Positions 22,080-34,504 of a DNA stretch of 64,000 nt are shown one piece after another. Numbering within the stretch: position 1 is the stretch's first letter; every line of letters starts with the position of its first letter. Both the position numbers and the translations under genes were made by a program. The notes beneath the pieces were generated by a model. It was not told the origin of the DNA. It made no database searches and was given only the letters and a program-made list of their open reading frames with translations. This DNA is from a virus, in IMG/VR virus record IMGVR_UViG_2599185214_000003. One strand, 5' to 3'.

Positions 22080-22667
22080 TCAGACGGTGAGGCTCAGTCG
22101 GTAGCCCACGTCGTAGGTGTCGGCGTTCTGGAACACGCGCGCCGCGGCGTACTTCGTCGCCGAGACCAGCGTACCGGTGGTGCCGCCCTTCGTGTTGTTC
22201 GTGAGCAGCGCAGCGCCCGTCACGTTCAGCTGGCCAGCGGTGGCAATCGTGAGCGTGGCCACGGCCGCCATGTTGTCGATGCTGTTGCCGGCCGTGTCGA
22301 CCGGCGTCCAGACCGGGCGCGTCGGGCTCGTGTAGCCCTCCGTCAGGCTGACGATCTCGGAGGCGACGGCTGCGAAGCTCGCCGCGGTCCAGTTCGGTGC
22401 CGGCGCAGCAGCGCCGCTGAACAGCGCCAAGTAGGCGCCCGCCGGCTTTGCCTTGCCGCCCAGAGCCACGTTCAGGATGTGCGCGAGGCCCTCGGTCACG
22501 ATCAGGTTGGGCGTGCGCTGCCACGCGCCGCCGTTGACGCGGTCGAAGTACTCGCCCGCGGCGTGCACGCCCAAGGTCGGAAAGGCGAGCCCGGCGTCGG
22601 TGACGTCGAAAATCTCGCGATCGAGGGCTCGAACGAGCGCGCGGGCCAGTTTGTTGCGCAGGGTCAT
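22080..22667 (-). CDS. Phage tail-associated protein
   Basis: 195 aa; PNLIVTEGLAHILNVAL...YLALF pattern seen in phage tail proteins. Confidence 0.6.
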   Translation of the reverse strand: MTLRNKLARALVRALDREIFDVTDAGLAFPTLGVHAAGEYFDRVNGGAWQRTPNLIVTEGLAHILNVALGGKAKPAGAYLALFSGAAAPAPNWTAASFAAVASEIVSLTEGYTSPTRPVWTPVDTAGNSIDNMAAVATLTIATAGQLNVTGAALLTNNTKGGTTGTLVSATKYAAARVFQNADTYDVGYRLSLTV

Positions 22668-22741
22668 AGGAAGCTCCAGTGGTCCTATGCCGCACTCCTG
22701 CGCAGCTGAATGGGCCCGACAGCACGCCGGGCAAGAAAACC

Positions 22742-23929
22742 TCAGGCTACCGCGGTCAGCAGTCGGCGACCAAACACTACAGAGGTCCCGGACCGCGCGG
22801 CGATGCCCTTCATCACGCCCGCCTGCAACTCGACCAGCGCGCCGGCGGCAGTGCCCACCACGTAGCCGTTGTCCGCCAGCCAGATTGCGGCCTCGGTCCC
22901 GCCAGCGGTGAGGTCGCCGCCCAGCGTGTCCGGCGGCGCCAGCACGGCGCTACCCGGCACCGGCGCGCGGCCGCCCTTCCGCTCCACCGAGAACTCCTCC
23001 GGGGCGCTGCCGCGCAGGAACACCACGTGGTCGACCTGCCCGACCCATATCCCGGCATCGACTGGCTGCACGAACGTGATGCGCTGAGGCATCTGCACGA
23101 AGCCGTGCCGCTCGTCGTGCAGATGGTAGGCCAGGGCCTCGGACCATCGAAGCACGTTGCCGCGAGCGGTGAGCAGCCGACCGCGCCACTGTGCAAAAAA
23201 ACGGCCCGTGGGCATCGGCGCCAGGTGGCGGAACTGCGCGGGCGCGCCCAACTGCGGCAGCAGCGGCAAATGAATGGTCGCAGTACCGGCCGGCCAGTCG
23301 CCGGCGCGCAGCAGCTCGCCGCCGTCCCGCCTCGTCAGGTACAGGCGCACTCCGGTGAGCGTCGGATCCAGCCAGATCGGCAGCGCGACCTCGAGCGCGC
23401 CGGCGGCGCCCACTTCAGCGGTTGCCAGCTCGGAGGTGGCGGACTCCTGCGCGCCGCGCAGCCAAGCGAGCGCCGCGCCGTAGGTGCCCGGCTCCAGCGA
23501 GCCCGCGCCTGCGGTCAGCAGCGGTGCCGCCGGCGTCTCGATGGTGAGGCGCTGCGCCACATTGCCGTCGAAGGTGAAAAGGCCTGCCGGTCCTGCAACG
23601 CAGACCAGGCTGTTGAGCACCACGTGTCCTGCGCCCTCTCCGACGTTCGCCAGCGACTCATGCGTCCAGCTCCTCGGGTCGATCTTGACCCACTGCCCCT
23701 CCAGCGTGCCAAAGGTGTCGCGGTGCAGCGGGCTCTGCCACACGTCGCGGTACCGGACCGTGGACACGCGCCGTTCCCCCGTGCGCACGCTCGCCCGGCC
23801 CGCCGCCGTGATGTCCACGTTCAGCGCATCGCGCAGGTAGACCCGCGCCGAGTCGCCGCCGCGCTTCATCGCCTCGTCCTCGGCCACGTTGTTGATGCCG
23901 GCCAGCGGCATGAGGGAAATGTCGTCCAT
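22742..23929 (-). CDS. Putative tail nozzle / head-closure protein
   Basis: Start ATG 23929 (MDDISLMPLAGINN) overlaps the upstream stop; beta-rich; FFAQWRGRLL...RWSEALAYH pattern. Confidence 0.55.
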   Translation of the reverse strand: MDDISLMPLAGINNVAEDEAMKRGGDSARVYLRDALNVDITAAGRASVRTGERRVSTVRYRDVWQSPLHRDTFGTLEGQWVKIDPRSWTHESLANVGEGAGHVVLNSLVCVAGPAGLFTFDGNVAQRLTIETPAAPLLTAGAGSLEPGTYGAALAWLRGAQESATSELATAEVGAAGALEVALPIWLDPTLTGVRLYLTRRDGGELLRAGDWPAGTATIHLPLLPQLGAPAQFRHLAPMPTGRFFAQWRGRLLTARGNVLRWSEALAYHLHDERHGFVQMPQRITFVQPVDAGIWVGQVDHVVFLRGSAPEEFSVERKGGRAPVPGSAVLAPPDTLGGDLTAGGTEAAIWLADNGYVVGTAAGALVELQAGVMKGIAARSGTSVVFGRRLLTAVA

Positions 23930-26849: not shown

Positions 26850-27227
26850 TCACGCAGCCTTCGCCGAGACGTTGGCCAAGATCATGTCGTTGTAACCAGC
26901 ATGGCGGCACACAACGTCAAACCGCAGGGCCGTGCTCAACCCGTCGATGCGCCAGGTGCCATCAACGCCGGACATCACCGACCCCACCAGCATCCCGTCG
27001 CCCAACGCGCCCGTGGCCGTCCGAAGCAGTACTCGGACCTCCGCCGGACCGGGCACGCCTTCGATCTTCGTGATGCCTCCAGGATAGGTTCCGGCCAGAT
27101 ACCCAGTGCCCGCAACGTAGGCATCGGCGCCAGGCACATCGGCATTGACCAGATTCGCCGCTGGCGCCACATAGCCGGCTGTGAGCATCCGGCCGGCACG
27201 CAATCCGGTGGGTGGTCCGTACCCCAT
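26850..27227 (-). CDS. Small transthyretin/Ig-like tail module
   Basis: GTGYLAG...DGTWRIDGL...FDVV...GYNDMILANVS; paralog of 27900-28253. Confidence 0.65.
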   Translation of the reverse strand: MGYGPPTGLRAGRMLTAGYVAPAANLVNADVPGADAYVAGTGYLAGTYPGGITKIEGVPGPAEVRVLLRTATGALGDGMLVGSVMSGVDGTWRIDGLSTALRFDVVCRHAGYNDMILANVSAKAA

Positions 27228-27230
27228 GGG

Positions 27231-27890
27231 TCAGACCTCCGCGGGGGTGATCGGGCCGTCGGCGATTGGGCGATACCCGGACGGCCCCAGATGAGTGACC
27301 AGCACCTGGTCGAGGCTAGGCGCTGGCCACGACCAGGTGCCATTAGCCGCGGGCGTCAGGGACGCCAATAGAGCGCCAGTGCTCCAGTTTTGAATCAGCA
27401 CACGGCTTGCTGCCACGCCGCCTTCCAGGCGCGACGTTCCGCGCACCTGCGTCCAGATGGCGCTCGTCTTCGTGGTCGGACCGCCAGAGACCATGAAGTC
27501 CACGAATGCGACGATGGTTGTCCAAGCACTCCCATCGTTGGAGCCTTGCAGCTCGAAGTCGCGCGGATACTCCAGTGGCTGCGCGGTCGAGACCAGTCGC
27601 ATGGACCGCACGACCACGGCAGCAGGCAGTTCCACGCTCAGCATCGATGGCGTGCCCGCCGTCACTCGGTTGTCAGATTCCCAGTAGGTGGCTGCATTTC
27701 CATCGTTTGCATTGGCGGGGACGAACGACTCGTAGACCCCGTTCGCTGACATCGTGCCACTGCGCATCACGTCCAGCCCGCTCGCGTCCGCCGCCTCAAA
27801 CATCGCCCATTCGGCCACGCAGTAGTAGCGCAGGTCGCCGCTGGAGTTCTTCGTGAACTTCAGCCTGTAGAACTTGAAAGCAGTCGCCAT
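27231..27890 (-). CDS. Discoidin (F5/8 type C) carbohydrate-binding tail protein
   Basis: ANANDGNAATYWES...ELPAAVVVRSMRL...FELQGSNDGSAWT motif. Confidence 0.8.
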   Translation of the reverse strand: MATAFKFYRLKFTKNSSGDLRYYCVAEWAMFEAADASGLDVMRSGTMSANGVYESFVPANANDGNAATYWESDNRVTAGTPSMLSVELPAAVVVRSMRLVSTAQPLEYPRDFELQGSNDGSAWTTIVAFVDFMVSGGPTTKTSAIWTQVRGTSRLEGGVAASRVLIQNWSTGALLASLTPAANGTWSWPAPSLDQVLVTHLGPSGYRPIADGPITPAEV

Positions 27891-27899
27891 GCTGCGCTC

Positions 27900-28253
27900 C
27901 TAGATGCTTGGCGAGACGTTCGCGACGATCACGTCGTTGTGACCGTTCTTGCGCCCCACGACATCGAACTTCAGCGCGAGATTGAGCCCGTCCACTCGCC
28001 AGGTGCCGTCCGCAGCCGATACCACCTCGGCGACAACGACTCCATCACCGGGTGCTGCACTGGCGGGACGGTAGAGGATGCGCACAACGGCGCTTTGAGG
28101 CACGCCTTGAACGCTGGTAATGCCATCCGGGAATTCGCCAGCGAGATAGCCCGTACCGCTAGGTGGGAGGTTTCGCACCGCCGGGCGCACGCCGTGCCCG
28201 CCGGCGATGATGCGGCGCGAGTCGTAGGGTGTCGCCAGGATGTATTGGGCCAT
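27900..28253 (-). CDS. Small transthyretin/Ig-like tail module
   Basis: GTGYLAG...DGTWRVDGL...FDVV...GHNDVIVANVS. Confidence 0.65.
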   Translation of the reverse strand: MAQYILATPYDSRRIIAGGHGVRPAVRNLPPSGTGYLAGEFPDGITSVQGVPQSAVVRILYRPASAAPGDGVVVAEVVSAADGTWRVDGLNLALKFDVVGRKNGHNDVIVANVSPSI

Positions 28254-28256
28254 GCC

Positions 28257-29219
28257 CTACTCCCACAGCATGGCGACTGCAGCGCGCACGGAAGTCCCGT
28301 TGAAGACATCGCCGGGCCACACGGGATTCATCGCCATGAAGTTCCGTGTCTGCGTGCCCACTGCCGCGGCAGTGAATTCATCGTTCCCGACCGCTCCGGG
28401 CCCGCGTCGAACACAGAGCAACTGCGCGAGGCGCTTCGGCGCCGGCGTCATCGTATGGAAGTTGTAGATCGGGATCTTGCCGTCCACCGTCGCAACGTTC
28501 TCCGCACCGAGCGCAAGTGCGCAGCGACTTGAAACAGTCACCACGCCTGTCTTGCTCAGGTAGGCAGCAATTGGCGCATCGCCGAAGTAGCCGTTATAGG
28601 TTCCACCAGGCGCGACCACGATCAACGAAGCGCCCTCGGCCGTTGGCTCACCGGAGTCGTTCGTGTCACGACAAATGAAGAAGGACGCCAGCGGTGGCGA
28701 ATCTGCGACTGCGGCGGAGGGCCCATAGGACGTGCTCGGATCGATAGCCAACTGCTTGAAGGACACCCCCAGGAATCCCGGCAAGACACAGATGTATGAC
28801 TGAAGTGCCTGGCCAAAGGTCGCATTGCGCTGATACTGCCCGCTCGACTGATTGGCGCCCGCGACATATTCGGGCGTAGCACTTGTGAGGGTTCCAGCTC
28901 CGTTCGTTCCCAAGCCAATCGACAGGTAAAAGGACCACAAAAGCCGGGTTGTTGTGGTCTGCGCCGGTGTGACGAAGCGAATTTTCAGGAAGATGGGCAA
29001 CGTGTTGCCGTCGTTCAGCTTGTAGATGCGATAGCCGTAGTTCGTATTGGAAGTCAGCGTCGTGATCGCGCTGAAATCGAGCTGCCCTGTATCGGTTCCC
29101 GCAACAAGGCCGGCTTCCAGAAGCTTGTCATGCAGCTCTTGGCACACGCGCTTGAAGTCATCGACCGTGGAGGCCGACGCCGAGGTGACTAAGAGGGTAT
29201 TGAACGCCACTTTGGTCAT
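28257..29219 (-). CDS. Hypothetical tail / receptor-binding module protein
   Basis: 320-aa ORF of lower GC, coupled to neighbours. Confidence 0.6.
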   Translation of the reverse strand: MTKVAFNTLLVTSASASTVDDFKRVCQELHDKLLEAGLVAGTDTGQLDFSAITTLTSNTNYGYRIYKLNDGNTLPIFLKIRFVTPAQTTTTRLLWSFYLSIGLGTNGAGTLTSATPEYVAGANQSSGQYQRNATFGQALQSYICVLPGFLGVSFKQLAIDPSTSYGPSAAVADSPPLASFFICRDTNDSGEPTAEGASLIVVAPGGTYNGYFGDAPIAAYLSKTGVVTVSSRCALALGAENVATVDGKIPIYNFHTMTPAPKRLAQLLCVRRGPGAVGNDEFTAAAVGTQTRNFMAMNPVWPGDVFNGTSVRAAVAMLWE

Positions 29220-29557
29220 GCGCCGTCCTTTAGCACCCCGAACGGCGTCTCGTTGGCCCAGTAGCCCTTGTCCTCGTGCCAGGCCCCGTACTCCACCAGC
29301 AGCGCGTCATCGCCGCGCTGGGCGGCGTAGCGGAGCGCGTAGTCGATAGCCCACTGCTGGGAGTCGCGCTCGGGCGGGCACGGTGCCAGCTCGTGCACGA
29401 ACATCTGGAACGGTGGCAGCGCGCCGACCTTGCGCCAGTCGACGACGATAGGCGGCGCCGGCGTCAGCTCGATGGGCTTCGGGGCGATGCCCTCCACGCC
29501 GACGCGCTGCGGCGCTGGCTTCTGCGGCTCGGCCGCGGCAGATTGGGTGTTTTGCAC
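29216..29557 (-). CDS. Hypothetical phage protein
   Basis: 113-aa ORF, SD CAGGAG, coupled stop/start. Confidence 0.6.
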   Translation of the reverse strand: MQNTQSAAAEPQKPAPQRVGVEGIAPKPIELTPAPPIVVDWRKVGALPPFQMFVHELAPCPPERDSQQWAIDYALRYAAQRGDDALLVEYGAWHEDKGYWANETPFGVLKDGA

Positions 29558-29574
29558 TCCTGCGCTCCCGGTGT

Positions 29575-29982
29575 TCAGACTTTGAAGATCTTGTTGGTGC
29601 CGTTGTCCCAGGTGACGATGATGTCGCCGCCGTTGGGCGTGATGGGCAGCCCTGTGGCCGTGTCGATGTAGGCGATCAGCGGCGAGGTGGACTCGGTCCC
29701 CGTGTCGCGATAGATCACGATGGCCTCGATGCTGGCGCCCGACACAGCAGTGAAGGTCACGTCTGCGCCGTCTGCCGCGCCGCCCGTGGTGGTCTTCGCT
29801 GTCAGCGTCACAGGCCCGGCGATGCGCGCCGAGGTCGGGATGTCGGACAGGTACTGGTGAATGGCCGTCTGCGGCGTGTACGCGCCGGTGTCCACCAGGA
29901 TGATCTTGATGGTGTCGGTCAGCCAGTTGAACTGGCCTTCGAGGAAGCGCTGCCGCGCAGCGTCATACAGGGTGTTTGCCAT
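29575..29982 (-). CDS. Conserved phage structural protein
   Basis: Likely start ATG 29982: MANTLYDAARQRFLEGQFNWLTDTIKIILVD...PNGGDIIVTW. Confidence 0.7.
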   Translation of the reverse strand: MANTLYDAARQRFLEGQFNWLTDTIKIILVDTGAYTPQTAIHQYLSDIPTSARIAGPVTLTAKTTTGGAADGADVTFTAVSGASIEAIVIYRDTGTESTSPLIAYIDTATGLPITPNGGDIIVTWDNGTNKIFKV

Positions 29983-30184
29983 TTGCGGCCTCTTCAGGAG
30001 AAGAGGCGCACTCCTGCGCGCCGGTGTGGATGCGCCCGCCTGGGCGCACGATCGGGGTCTTGGGGTCAGCGCAGATCGCGAGGCGTGCGCGCTGGCCCGA
30101 CTTGTGGGTGAGAGTGACCAGAGCGTCGCCAATGCGGACGGTTTCCCCCGCCCGGAGCTCGATGTGGTGCAGCGTGCTGGCCAT
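29963..30184 (-). CDS. CsrA/RsmA-like small protein
   Basis: ELRAGETVRIGD-ALVTL..SGQRARLAICADPKTPIVR aligns by eye with CsrA TRRVGETLMIGDEVTVTV..KGNQVRIGVNAPKEVSVHR, including the R44 equivalent. Confidence 0.65.
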   Translation of the reverse strand: MASTLHHIELRAGETVRIGDALVTLTHKSGQRARLAICADPKTPIVRPGGRIHTGAQECASSPEEAANGKHPV

Positions 30185-30858
30185 TACGGATGTACCACGG
30201 TGACGTGGTCGGTGTCGTCGCGCGTGCTGCGCCTCAGGTCCGAATCCGGCAACGGACCGAAGTAGGCGGTGAACGCGGCTTCGGCGGCCGCCGAGCGGGC
30301 GGGGTCAAAGCTCTCGGTGTCAGGGATCGAGAACCCACGGTGCAGCGCCCACTGCACCAGGTGCTCATGGTGGGCCGCGTGGATCTCGGGCGTGTCGTTG
30401 TCATCCGCCATCGGTACGAGCGGGAGCCTGTAGCCCTCGAGGCGAAGGATGCCGGCGCGCACAGGAGTGCTCACGAGCCTGATGGTCGTTTCCCCCTGAA
30501 TAGCGAACAGGATCTCGCCGGCTTGCAGGTGCTCACCCGCACGCCAGCCAGGCACCTTGCGATCGAGCCATTCCCGCGTCACCAACTTCGGCGTCGTCGT
30601 CTCGAACTGGGCGCCTTCGACCTGCAGGTGCACCAGCTCGTACAACGTCGCATGAAGCGGATAGGTGTGCTGGCCGGCCTGGATGGCGATCTCGCAGATT
30701 TCTGGCTTGGCATCCTCGAGCAGGAGTCGACCTCGCACCGCCGCCTGCGCCTGGGCGTCGTTGAGCCAGTCGCGCACGTCGGCATCCGGCCAGAAAGGCG
30801 GAATCGCCAGGTCGAATGCCAGCGTGCGAAAGCGGCGGATGAGGTCCTTCAGCGTCAT
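30184..30858 (-). CDS. Head-tail adaptor / connector protein
   Basis: MTLKDLIRRFR...WPDADVRDWLNDAQ...IHAAHHEHLVQWAL pattern; position after the capsid genes. Confidence 0.7.
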   Translation of the reverse strand: MTLKDLIRRFRTLAFDLAIPPFWPDADVRDWLNDAQAQAAVRGRLLLEDAKPEICEIAIQAGQHTYPLHATLYELVHLQVEGAQFETTTPKLVTREWLDRKVPGWRAGEHLQAGEILFAIQGETTIRLVSTPVRAGILRLEGYRLPLVPMADDNDTPEIHAAHHEHLVQWALHRGFSIPDTESFDPARSAAAEAAFTAYFGPLPDSDLRRSTRDDTDHVTVVHP

Positions 30859-30861
30859 GGA

Positions 30862-31470
30862 TCAAGGCACGCCGTATTGGTCGATCATTTCGACGATGCG
30901 CGCGCGCATGTTCTCGACCGACAGGTTCTTAGGCACCTTCTGGGAGAACTTCTCCATGCCCCAGTCCTGCAGCGCGTCCTTGTCCATCGAGTCCAGGGTC
31001 TGCACCAGGTCCAGGCGGTTCTGATCGGCGCGCTGGCGGTCCGCCTCAGTCTTGTTGGCTTCCGCCAGCCGATCCTCGGTGTCGTCCGCAGGCTCCTCGG
31101 CCGACTCGCCCTCGGGTTTGGAATCGCCGGTGGGCGCGACAGGCGACTGCCCGTCGGATGTGCTCCCGCCCTCGCCCGAACTGCCACCTTCGGCGCCAGT
31201 GCTCTCGCCGCCCAGCGTGCCGGTCTCGCCAGAGGGTGGCACCGGTGCAGGTGCGGGAGCGGGTGCAGGGGCCGACACGGGCGCGACAGGTGCCACGACA
31301 TCGCGCTCGAAGCAGTCGGAATGTCGCAGAAACTTGGCGACCAGATCGAGGTCGGGGATGGTGCGTGTCTGCCCGGGCACGAACGAGAGATTCGAGCCGT
31401 AAAGGCGGTCGTAGAACGGGTCTTCGCGCCCGATGTACTTGACGGGCACGCCGGCGGTCTTGGAGGTCAT
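30862..31470 (-). CDS. Hypothetical head-completion protein
   Basis: Likely start ATG 31470 after SD AAGGA; low-complexity linker and helical C-terminal domain. Confidence 0.6.
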   Translation of the reverse strand: MTSKTAGVPVKYIGREDPFYDRLYGSNLSFVPGQTRTIPDLDLVAKFLRHSDCFERDVVAPVAPVSAPAPAPAPAPVPPSGETGTLGGESTGAEGGSSGEGGSTSDGQSPVAPTGDSKPEGESAEEPADDTEDRLAEANKTEADRQRADQNRLDLVQTLDSMDKDALQDWGMEKFSQKVPKNLSVENMRARIVEMIDQYGVP

Positions 31471-31529
31471 GGTGGTTCCTTCAGAACGGGGAAAGGACGG
31501 GGGAAGGCGATCGCCCTCCCCCGCTCGCA

Positions 31530-32009
31530 TCACTTCGCGCCCAGGCGTTCGCCGTGGACGATGAAGTCGACGCGGCTGGCCTTGGCGTTCGCCGCGCCGG
31601 CGAGCGTCAGCACCAGGAAGGCCTCCTTCGCCAGCGTGACCGGCGCCTTCGACGAGGTCGTGCGCAGGCGAGCAGCCGCGTTGAGCACGAGGCCCGTACC
31701 GAAGTACGCGAGGTCCTGCGGCACGTCGGCGCTGTCCACGCCATCGGCGTACTCGAAGCCCAGCGAGCCGGTAACGGCCGCGGTCATGGCGGTGGACACG
31801 ATCAGCTGCAGGTCTTCCAGGCGGAAGCCCGCCGGCAGGCTTTGCAGGTAGACCTTGTCGCCGACGCCGAGAGGCGTGGTTGCGTTGGCTCGCACTGCTG
31901 CGCCCGTCGCGTCGGTTTCGAGCACCGCGCGCAGCGTTGTGACGTTGCCGTAGGCGGCCATGCCGCCGAACTGGTTGATGCCCAGTCCCTTGAGTTTGAT
32001 GTTGGCCAT
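31530..32009 (-). CDS. Capsid decoration / cement-like protein
   Basis: Likely start ATG 32009 after SD AAGGAG; beta-rich, directly after the major capsid gene. Confidence 0.6.
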   Translation of the reverse strand: MANIKLKGLGINQFGGMAAYGNVTTLRAVLETDATGAAVRANATTPLGVGDKVYLQSLPAGFRLEDLQLIVSTAMTAAVTGSLGFEYADGVDSADVPQDLAYFGTGLVLNAAARLRTTSSKAPVTLAKEAFLVLTLAGAANAKASRVDFIVHGERLGAK

Positions 32010-32064
32010 TGGTGGCTCCTTGATTGGGTGAAGGGAGAGGCCGGGTTGCCCCGGCCCTGGGTCA

Positions 32065-33354
32065 TCAGCCGCGCGGCTTGATGATCGGCACCACGGTGTC
32101 AAGCACCGTCACGCCGTGGTCGGTGAACTGCACCTCGTCGCCGTGGTCCACCGCGAAGCGGATCTTCGACAGGCCCTGGATGACCCCGATCAGGATTTCC
32201 AGTTTGTCGCCGTGGTCGTCGTCCTCCTCGCTCCAGAAGAACGGCATGCCGCTGTGCTCCGAAGCGGCGAATGCCTGGCCGAGGGCCTGCCCACCCAGCA
32301 GGATGGCGCGGTCGATGGCGAACTTCGTGGTGAAGCTGGCCGGCACAACAGCTTGGCTCTCGGTCTCGGCGTCGTAAGCCGCGCAGTAGCGGATCACATC
32401 GTTGGCGTAGAAACGAATCGGCTTCGGCATCTTGACCATCAGGATGCCGTTCCACAGGCCTGCGTCACCGAGGAACAGCGGATGGTCCTTGATGAGGCGT
32501 GCGCGCGCCACGGCGGCGGCCTGGAAGTTGCGAAACGCCGGATCGGTCGCGAAGCCGCTGTACTGCGCGGGCGAAAGCAGCATCACCCGGATCGGGCTGT
32601 CGGTGGCAGCCTGGTCGCCATCGAACTGCACTGGCGGAGGCGGCAGCGCGATCTGATCGATGTAGGCGCGCACGGCGTCGACCGTGCCCATCTTCAGCAG
32701 GTCAGTCGAAGCGATGTCCACCTCACCCGCGTTGACCGTGAACTGGTCGATGACACCTGCCTTCGCCATGAAGTGGCGGTTCTTGGTAGGCGCCTTCACG
32801 GGATTGACCAGGATTTCCTGGAAATCGGGGTGCGTCTCGACGGGCACGCGCCATTCGATGTTGTCGTGGAAACCACGAGCGCCGCCCATGTGGACCAGGA
32901 TGGACTGGTCCAGGTAGTCGTTCGCCTTCTGCTGCGCCAGCGGCCGACCGACACGACGCAGGTCCACCGGGCTGCGGATCTGCGACATGACATCGCCCAT
33001 GTCGATCGGGAAGCGCGCCTGGTTCACGCGCAGCCGGTCTTCGGACAGCTTCACACCCACGCCCTTGCCCTTGGCGTACTTGCTGCCCATGATCGGGTAG
33101 CCACCGCTCGGGTTGATGAGGTTGAACTTCACCTCGTCGCCGCGGCCCTTGCCCAGGTCCTGCACCTGCACGATGGGCATGTGGTTGCTGGACTGCTTCT
33201 TGATCGTGGCGATCGCGCCTTCGAGCTTCGGCATCTTGCCGACGAGGCGGTTGATGGTGGTGTTGCGCTGCTGGCTGACGGCGAAGACGCCAGCTGCTTG
33301 CTGGACCATCGCTTTCGGGTCGCCATACGCGGTTTGCGTCTTGGTTGCGGTCAT
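32065..33354 (-). CDS. Major capsid protein, N4-gp56 / DUF4043 family
   Basis: 429 aa; DLGKGRGDEVKFNL, RVNQARFPI, GDAGLWNGILM, RAILLGGQAL, DHGVTVLDT motifs. Confidence 0.85.
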   Translation of the reverse strand: MTATKTQTAYGDPKAMVQQAAGVFAVSQQRNTTINRLVGKMPKLEGAIATIKKQSSNHMPIVQVQDLGKGRGDEVKFNLINPSGGYPIMGSKYAKGKGVGVKLSEDRLRVNQARFPIDMGDVMSQIRSPVDLRRVGRPLAQQKANDYLDQSILVHMGGARGFHDNIEWRVPVETHPDFQEILVNPVKAPTKNRHFMAKAGVIDQFTVNAGEVDIASTDLLKMGTVDAVRAYIDQIALPPPPVQFDGDQAATDSPIRVMLLSPAQYSGFATDPAFRNFQAAAVARARLIKDHPLFLGDAGLWNGILMVKMPKPIRFYANDVIRYCAAYDAETESQAVVPASFTTKFAIDRAILLGGQALGQAFAASEHSGMPFFWSEEDDDHGDKLEILIGVIQGLSKIRFAVDHGDEVQFTDHGVTVLDTVVPIIKPRG

Positions 33355-33394
33355 TTGACCTCCTTGTGTTGTGGTGCTGCGTGTGCCTGACGGC

Positions 33395-34504
33395 TCACAG
33401 GGATCGGTTCAGGAACGCATCGATCTGCTCGGGCGACATGCCTTGCATCGCCTCCGCCATCGATGCGGGGTCCATGGCTGCCAATCGCTCGTGCGGCGAC
33501 AGGGCGTCTGCCCGCCCGCCCGGGATGTCCGAGAGGGAGGACGGAACGGCCTGCGCCGCCGCAGCGATGACGGCTTGCGCAGCGGCCTTGGGATCGGCTG
33601 CCGCGGCTTGGCTTGCTCCAGCGGCCGGTGCCGCAGCCGGAGCTGCGGTGGCCTTCTTGAAATCGTTGAACAGCTCGACCACCTGCGCCGAGGTGCCCTT
33701 CTCCAACACGCCGCGCAGCGTGGGCTGCACGTAGCTGGGTTGGGCCCCGATCCACCGCTGCAGCTCCGCGCTCTCCGCCATGGAGTCCGCATCGGGGTGC
33801 GCCTTGTAGATGGCGTCGTAATGGGCCTCGCGAGCGCTGAGCTGGTGCTGCTGCTGGTACGGAGCCATGGCCTTGCCAACTTGGGCCTGGACCTGCTCCT
33901 GCACCTGCTGCGCCACCAGCGTCTGGATGCCCTTGGCCAGCGCCTCTTCGGAGAAGTCTCCGAAGATGGCCGGATCGACGCCCTTGTCGATGGCCGCTTG
34001 CGCGGCCGCCACCTGGTTGTCGGTCTGGGTCGGCGCTTGCCCTGCATCGGCGCGCTGCTGCGCCCGAGCCTGCAACTCGGTGAGCTGCCGTTGGGCCGTC
34101 TCCGCCTGCGCCCGCCAGTGCTGCTCACCCTCGCGGGCCTGCACCAGCTTCTCGTAGGGGATGGTGTGCTTTCCATCCTTCGCGAGCACGACAGCGTTGG
34201 ACGCATCGGGCTCGGCGGAAGCTGCTGCAGGCGCCGCGGCGGGCGTTGCTGCTGGGGCGGGCGCAGGGGCAGGAGACGCGGCCGGAGCCGGCGCAGCTGC
34301 GCTGCTGTTCGTATCGGCGCTGCCTGCCGCAGCGGGTGCGGAAGCGGGAGCTGCTGCAGCAGTGGTGGACGCGGGCGCGCCACCGTCATCCAGCCCAAAG
34401 CTGGTGTCGCCCGATGCCGCGATCTCGAGGAGCTCGGCGGCCTGCTGCGGCGTCAGTGCGCCGTTGATTTCGTTGGTCTGGAAAAAGTCGTTGGATGTCG
34501 TCAT
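33395..34504 (-). CDS. Capsid scaffolding protein
   Basis: Likely start ATG 34504; KHTIPYEKLVQAR motif, coiled coil, HYDAIYKAHPD, helical C-terminus; directly upstream of the capsid gene. Confidence 0.75.
   Translation of the reverse strand: MTTSNDFFQTNEINGALTPQQAAELLEIAASGDTSFGLDDGGAPASTTAAAAPASAPAAAGSADTNSSAAAPAPAASPAPAPAPAATPAAAPAAASAEPDASNAVVLAKDGKHTIPYEKLVQAREGEQHWRAQAETAQRQLTELQARAQQRADAGQAPTQTDNQVAAAQAAIDKGVDPAIFGDFSEEALAKGIQTLVAQQVQEQVQAQVGKAMAPYQQQHQLSAREAHYDAIYKAHPDADSMAESAELQRWIGAQPSYVQPTLRGVLEKGTSAQVVELFNDFKKATAAPAAAPAAGASQAAAADPKAAAQAVIAAAAQAVPSSLSDIPGGRADALSPHERLAAMDPASMAEAMQGMSPEQIDAFLNRSL

Follow-up and report, generated by a model that had tools for sequence, protein, structure and literature searches.

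A divergent CsrA-like protein and a linked, covarying hairpin in the late operon of an F116-like prophage: a candidate translational control of phage structural genes

Alleles of csrA are known from phages, and a survey listed them in 30 phage genomes, some of them from phages of Burkholderia hosts that have no chromosomal csrA (Sobrero and Valverde, 2020; PMC7366521). Manipulation of the host by phage CsrA has been speculated upon (PMC7366521, PMC8310193, PMC11879866), and a 2025 study, in which CsrA's part in a phage life cycle is stated to have been previously untested, found that knock-down of one phage csrA homologue led to smaller plaques (PMC11879866). In the characterised proteins, CsrA/RsmE recognises AGGA or A(N)GGAX loops at Shine-Dalgarno (SD) sites and R44 touches the RNA loop (PMC4005645). 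The gene analysed here is not new in itself; it adds to a known kind that is annotated but uncharacterised, the same gene being labelled 'CsrA-like regulator' or 'carbon storage regulator' in phages Epa33, 8P, Dartukuta, Bcep22, BcepIL02, BcepMigl and DC1 and in GP4-like Ralstonia phages. The part for which no description was found in Rfam or in the literature searched, including a search by motif sequence, is a conserved hairpin that is linked to this gene. We propose, with a probability of roughly 0.6, that the divergent CsrA-fold protein regulates translation of the phage's own late structural genes through these hairpins.

The window, by which we mean the whole 64,000-nucleotide stretch of DNA that was analysed, makes up nearly all of a 66-kb IMG/VR provirus record (IMGVR_UViG_2599185214_000003). 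Its structural region has approximately 69% DNA identity with F116-like Pseudomonas phages such as Epa33, and the nearest protein relatives come from Variovorax paradoxus; the element is an F116-like (Hollowayvirus-related) prophage, probably of Variovorax. Terminase, portal, major capsid and more virion genes are encoded on the same strand as the CsrA-like ORF, and the genes that matter for what follows are these:

30184..30858, minus strand: upstream head-tail adaptor gene (Pfam SU10_adaptor, 1.4e-30; resembles GP4 gp81, PDB 8jov)
29963..30184, minus strand: CsrA-like ORF of 73 amino acids (P0001), assigned by Pfam, PHROG, family profile and AF2/Foldseek
29575..29982, minus strand: downstream gene of 135 amino acids, phrog_644, candidate regulated gene 1 (resembles PDB 9d93, 'Tail wing arm, gp31', 2.3e-14)
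29216..29557, minus strand: phrog_11163 gene (PHROG match) of 113 amino acids with a putative GTG start at 29557, candidate regulated gene 2
22080..22667, minus strand: phrog_8123 gene (PHROG match) of 195 amino acids with its ATG at 22667, candidate regulated gene 3

The start codon of the CsrA-like ORF (ATG, 30184-30182) has one base in common with the TAA of the adaptor gene, forming TAATG, its final 20 nt overlap the downstream gene, whose ATG is at 29982, and no SD of its own is visible at its start. The protein would be made from the late virion operon via translational coupling to the adaptor gene. An earlier reading of this DNA from the sequence alone had proposed a gene for 73 amino acids at this position, translationally coupled between a head-tail adaptor gene and a structural gene; the ORF is real, its translation was confirmed and it overlaps both of these genes. 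Between the adaptor gene and a phrog_8260 structural gene lies a further ORF of 223 amino acids (30862-31533, minus strand) that matches only the unknown-function PHROGs 11782 and 19474; its middle is of low complexity and rich in Ala and Pro (APAPAPAPV..), an acidic stretch is also present, and a role as a scaffold-like or decoration protein is conceivable. A distant blastn search with positions 27000-34000 returned 102 Mycobacterium phage records at 60-80% identity. Together with the likeness of the downstream gene product to 9d93, these matches suggest a structural module common to GC-rich proteobacterial podoviruses and actinobacteriophages, or else they are a mere effect of GC composition at the DNA level.

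Profile homology and structure prediction agree that the product of the ORF truly belongs to the CsrA/RsmA fold family, as a divergent member and not a canonical CsrA. The Pfam CsrA model (PF02599) aligns residues 9-47 with its positions 5-44 at 17.6 bits (E 0.0037), short of the gathering threshold of 27 bits, with the same outcome from the whole provirus record, and similarity of the single sequence to RsmE is weak (E 0.12, HMMER against the PDB). PHROG 8397, 'CsrA-like regulator', is matched at 4.8e-15, residues 8-66 aligning with positions 5-63 of the 64 in the profile, and an exhaustive profile search gathered 261 clusters of relatives of 55-90 amino acids at E<=0.001. Searched against the PDB, a profile of 99 of these relatives gave nine matches with E<=1e-4, all of them CsrA, RsmA or RsmE, the best (6.6e-10) covering RsmE residues 1-48. 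The resemblance to CsrA is far beyond chance at the family level: this 99-member profile finds only CsrA-family proteins in the PDB. Taken individually, 62 of the 99 members match Pfam CsrA at E<0.01 (best 6.4e-12).

AF2 with a deep alignment (model m1dda6822fcb2) predicts a five-stranded CsrA-type beta protomer, with pLDDT of 89-96 over residues 1-40. When this model was compared with the PDB by Foldseek, the top 15 matches were all CsrA/RsmA/RsmE (probability 0.89-1.00, twelve at 1.00), and it superimposes on CsrA-family chains mostly at approximately 1 Å rmsd over 44-47 residues. The predicted monomer leaves beta1 and beta5 unpaired, as is expected of a strand-swapped dimer. A model made from a shallow alignment of eight sequences was a collapsed monomer (pLDDT 73) with no Foldseek match and was superseded by that from the deep alignment. 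The sequence-only reading had called the product a CsrA-like RNA-binding protein, had named a PF02599 search as a check and had taken absence of a CsrA fold as refutation. On these points it is supported by profile homology and by the predicted CsrA-type fold, the PF02599 match being sub-threshold when taken alone and the kinship being borne out by PHROG 8397 and the family profile.

HMMER alignments set GETVRIGD of the phage protein against GESINIGD and GETLMIGD of RsmE/CsrA, and RLAICA against RIGINA. In E. coli CsrA numbering, I8 is equivalent to L4, R11 to R7 and R47 to R44, and L10 replaces R6. The two aligned blocks, the R44 match and the missing R6 equivalent had been pointed out from the sequence and were confirmed. 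Across the family, the position equivalent to R44 is Arg in 43 of 99 members and that equivalent to R6 is hydrophobic in 98 of 99, and the family has a signature of its own, a near-invariant K-S-G-Q-x-A-R-L turn (KSGQ.ARL), with G13, G19, K28, G30, R34, L35 and A39 as near-invariant residues. Residues 1-48 form the predicted CsrA-type beta core and residues 49-73 a low-confidence tail. As had also been noted, the usual C-terminal alpha-helix after beta5 is missing: in the deep-alignment AF2 model residues 51-73 have pLDDT of approximately 55 and no secondary structure. Some relatives of 120-134 amino acids (L023:3001-3405, P0070, P0140) have the CsrA-like core fused to a C-terminal extension.

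The C-terminal residues AQECASS are oddly conserved among distant relatives, with ARMSA as an alternative form. In the DNA of 80 related IMG/VR loci the conserved unit is a run of nucleotides, GCGCANGAGUGC, and not the amino acids. Copies within the ORF tail are translated in different frames, as AQECA, AHECA, ARMSA or ARKSA, and in many other phages the unit falls in the non-coding spacer after the stop codon; in the window, the codons of the tail (residues 49-73) hold RNA elements and the beginning of the overlapping next gene, by which they are constrained. Aligned without gaps, 38 instances support a hairpin with the consensus NN-GCGC / ANGA / GUGC-N'N'. With the ANGA loop, 97.7% of cells in this alignment pair, the G.U pair is invariant, and five pair types occur at each of the two outer pairs, with 23 double changes; none of 500 shuffles reached the observed values and slid controls were far lower. 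The instances were chosen by an 8-nt core pattern, so invariance of the core is partly by construction; the outer pairs and the bases flanking the core were unselected. The other register, GCGCA/UGCGC with the loop NGAG, showed no covariation and had 15 of 37 cells unpaired at one pair, and it was rejected. Approximately one-third of the loops are AUGA, AAGA or ACGA, and so are without the GGA that canonical CsrA requires, and several CsrA-like genes without a match have variants with 5-nt loops instead, for example AGGAA or AGGAU. No Rfam family lies at the hairpins, and an Rfam gathering scan of the whole window gave only a tRNA gene (Rfam tRNA, 57.7 bits; 43300-43373, minus strand), which is within the provirus, upstream of the terminase region.

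All four of the window's best covariance-model matches fall on the late strand, three of them at gene start regions. They are listed here with a second hairpin that directly follows the first:

30005..30022, minus strand: hairpin site 1, GGCGCGC-AGGA-GUGCGCC, core 30008-30019 (33.7 bits)
29990..30005, minus strand: second hairpin, CUCUUC-UCCU-GAAGAG, directly after site 1, pairing the SD region (GAAGAGG) of the 135-aa tail gene
22689..22706, minus strand: hairpin site 2, GCUGCGC-AGGA-GUGCGGC (21.4 bits, E 0.0015)
29554..29565, minus strand: hairpin site 3, core GCGC-AGGA-GUGC (16.2 bits)
23433-23460, minus strand: fourth covariance match, GCGCAGGAGUCCGC (15.5 bits), within the coding region of a large late gene

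The fourth match is probably a chance near-copy and was not counted. Site 1 is inside the tail of the CsrA-like ORF, 37 nt upstream of the ATG of the next gene, with a predicted energy of -13.7 kcal/mol (z -2.75). Site 2 is intergenic and precedes the ATG at 22667 by 36 nt, an additional AGGA and a GGAG lying between the two; its predicted energy is -11.6 kcal/mol (z -3.08), and the same hairpin stands upstream of phrog_8123 homologues in three other phages (L116, L154 and L201). Site 3 overlaps the SD of the phrog_11163 gene together with its putative GTG start (29557). In the window its stem has only 4 bp (z -0.38), and it recurs in Epa33, 8P and Dartukuta and in 11 IMG/VR relatives, in which the loop AGGAG is the SD. 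All three window hairpins have the loop AGGA, which matches the A(N)GGAX motif at a ribosome-binding region.

In most relatives the hairpin follows the CsrA-like gene, either within the tail of the ORF or in the spacer beyond. The 56 unique loci (311 kb) contain 63 core matches, every one on the operon strand, of which 48 come right after the CsrA-like core and 11 are at a second fixed site; counted by gene, 67 of 91 unique CsrA-like genes have a hairpin match within 700 nt downstream. The core begins 25-55 nt upstream of the start codon of the next gene in nearly all relatives, and two unrelated genes can occupy this next place: F116-like phages have the one for the 135-aa tail protein there, Bcep22/GP4-like phages the one for the major capsid protein. 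The hairpin therefore travels with the CsrA-like gene and not with its neighbour. An exact 14-mer scan of IMG/VR gave mostly chance matches in coding DNA. Among 80 matches examined, 15 have a CsrA-like gene within 600 nt upstream, and where copies stand at start regions away from the gene, the records encode a CsrA-like protein elsewhere (L116, L154, L162). One capsid-linked phage has two tandem hairpins, 34 nt apart, in the leader of the capsid gene (L071:3202-3263). In L034, L048, L053 and L077 and in Bcep22 and GP4, GAGUGC is complementary to a GCACUC just before the AUG, and it is a possibility that this pairing would make a switch in some capsid-linked phages. As a general feature such long-range masking is not supported by the energy test, in which duplex energies were no better than those of random windows from the same loci (median rank 0.28; 6 of 41 below 0.05).

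We propose that the CsrA-like protein would act mainly on the phage's own late mRNA, binding as a dimer to the hairpin with its GCGC/GUGC stem, invariant G.U and ANGA tetraloop (AGGA in the window). The hairpin is placed on, or a short way upstream of, the ribosome-binding sites of structural genes, whose translation would be tuned by the binding; in the window the targets would be the tail-wing-arm-like, phrog_11163 and phrog_8123 genes, and in Bcep22/GP4-like phages the gene for the major capsid protein. What the analysis shows is the homology, the predicted fold and the hairpins with their covariation, strand specificity, placement and linkage to the gene; that the protein dimerises, that it binds RNA and which way it regulates is what we infer. 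At sites 1 and 2 the hairpin is approximately 20 nt upstream of a structured SD, and the protein could repress by bridging to the SD or activate by remodelling. Repression is the natural reading at site 3, because there the loop itself is the SD. The sequence-only reading had offered two roles, a translational regulator of late-gene stoichiometry or host shut-down. The former fits the AGGA-loop hairpins found at three late-gene starts and conserved beside the gene in many phages, with the RNA binding as a step that we infer; the latter is unsupported, the gene being in the late virion operon and its candidate targets being the phage's own.

Co-occurrence alone does not prove that the CsrA-like protein reads the hairpin, because the hairpin is within or beside the gene. 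One explanation for the data is therefore that the hairpins are real and serve as mRNA-stabilising or processing signals, or as structures that present or mask the SD and are resolved by coupling, with the protein doing something else. The ORF tail of F116-like phages contains both the hairpin and the stem that masks the SD, so that these would be melted by ribosomes finishing the ORF, as in classic coupling, and the third of loops that have no GGA fits this explanation too. In the capsid-linked phages, however, the hairpin is 4-104 nt after the CsrA-like stop codon, beyond melting by coupling, and the element follows the CsrA-like gene before unrelated genes. Furthermore, the stem is invariant, the G.U fixed and the A.GA loop kept across proteins that are only 32-45% identical, which argues for sequence-specific recognition and not mere stability. 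The identity of the loop bears on the same question. Among 67 unique gene-hairpin pairs, the position equivalent to R44 is Arg or Lys in 24 of 45 with an AGGA loop, compared with 1 of 22 that have a base other than G at the second loop position (Fisher 9e-5, with kinship ignored). An independent-pairs test found one supported pair and seven inferred changes of residue state, and since the tree of such short proteins is poorly resolved, the co-variation of this residue with the first G of the loop GGA is suggestive only, an association that is not phylogenetically robust and to that extent favours hairpins that the protein does not read. On balance we regard an element with no part for the protein as unlikely.

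Another possibility is that the protein mainly targets host mRNAs, either in lytic growth or in lysogeny, mimicking or replacing the global Csr/Rsm regulator and so affecting metabolism, defence or biofilm. CsrA-family proteins are global regulators, host manipulation has been the published speculation (PMC7366521, PMC8310193, PMC11879866), and the reduced plaque size on knock-down of a phage csrA homologue (PMC11879866) is in keeping with it. It is opposed by the embedding of the gene in the late virion operon, to which it is coupled, by the conserved candidate sites on the phage's own mRNA, and by the proxy host, which offers no Csr system to replace. V. paradoxus NBRC 15149, used as this proxy, carries a prophage homologue that is 79% identical to the CsrA-like protein and has no Pfam-CsrA match above the cut-off, the best sub-threshold match being the prophage gene itself; the general statement in the sequence-only reading that many betaproteobacteria lack csrA thus holds for this proxy genome, on which its suggested check of the host was run. 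The Rfam gathering scan found no GGA-rich decoy sRNA of the CsrB/RsmZ type in the window. Although host targets and self-regulation are compatible with one another, we hold it to be decidedly improbable that host mRNAs are the main targets. On the matter of hosts, the phage vB_BspP_Dartukuta (L240, MW749009.1) is recorded from Bacillus and has the F116-like gene order, the CsrA-like gene and both hairpins at 51% GC, and its host assignment may deserve a check.

The product could also be a small virion or assembly protein with a beta-rich fold that resembles CsrA and with no role on RNA. Its constant place among the head-tail genes of F116-like phages would suit this, yet by sequence and profile it resembles only CsrA in the PDB, although virion structures of relatives are present there (8jov, 9d93), the Bcep22/GP4-like gene sits elsewhere, before the capsid gene, and the linked RNA element would be left unexplained, so that we give this very little credence. 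GC-rich DNA yields many spurious ORFs here, but a chance open frame with no function is refuted by conservation as protein in 261 clusters (E<=0.001), by family-specific near-invariant residues and by the confident predicted fold, and can be set aside.

Regulation of the phage's own late genes is the reading that we prefer, and it may extend further. Perhaps the CsrA-like gene, for a minimal CsrA-fold protein, and a cognate operator, GCGC-ANGA-GUGC, form a portable translational-control cassette of tailed phages, which is independent of host Csr and has been set before different structural genes in different lineages: before the capsid gene where the phage is Bcep22/GP4-like, and before the tail-wing-arm-like gene and two more where it is F116-like. 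Such a cassette may couple subunit synthesis to assembly, and the co-variation of residue and loop would then be a co-evolving protein-RNA code. We advance this wider view tentatively, at somewhat less than even odds. A covarying hairpin that is linked to the gene makes the role of the widely annotated phage csrA homologues directly testable. If the proposal is true, it shows by what post-transcriptional means the podoviruses that infect Variovorax, Pseudomonas, Burkholderia and Ralstonia adjust their quantities of capsid and tail proteins, and it defines an RNA motif that is absent from Rfam and a compact protein-operator pair that works in hosts without Csr.

Of the known systems, the CsrA/RsmA/RsmE family (PF02599) is like the phage protein in the predicted protomer fold, which is within approximately 1 Å of 1vpz, 2bti, 2jpp and 5z38, in the GE..IGD and G..RL..A blocks and in the equivalents of L4, R7 and R44 (I8, R11 and R47). 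The candidate targets, AGGA hairpin loops near the SD, may likewise be compared with RsmE-hcnA and the RsmZ stem-loops (PMC4005645). In contrast to that family, the phage protein is below the Pfam threshold, has Leu for R6 and Glu or Asp for T5, has no predicted C-terminal helix and has its own KSGQ.ARL turn; the candidate site differs in its invariant GCGC/GUGC stem with a G.U and in a loop of 4 nt that allows variation at the first G of GGA, and the gene belongs to a late virion operon and to a phage whose host lineage, judged by the proxy host, is without a Csr system. In the CsrA-FliW-flagellin checkpoint of Bacillus and at the coat operators of MS2 and Qbeta, a structural subunit is translated under the control of a small RNA-binding protein that acts on a hairpin in the start region. 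The phage gene and hairpin can be likened to these by analogy only, as the fold of the MS2 coat protein is unrelated to CsrA and, unlike in the Bacillus checkpoint, no FliW-like antagonist was identified in this analysis.

The RsmM-type csrA alleles of Pseudomonas aeruginosa phages (phi297, AUS531phi and others) are also phage-borne members of the CsrA family (PMC7366521). They are canonical, however, with approximately 63% identity to E. coli CsrA, whereas the protein in the window has diverged much further and falls in a separate clade that is tied to structural genes. Its direct homologues are those of the PHROG 8397 phages Epa33, Bcep22, BcepIL02, DC1, GP4, 8P and Dartukuta (tblastn, 45-61% identity over the core), whose 'CsrA-like regulator' annotations in RefSeq are none of them based on experiment and whose hairpin went unmentioned in the literature searched. 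The gene order of adaptor, CsrA-like protein and 135-aa tail protein is shared by Epa33, 8P and Dartukuta, which also carry the same hairpins, whereas in the Bcep22/GP4-like phages the CsrA-like gene and its hairpin are found shortly before the major capsid gene instead.
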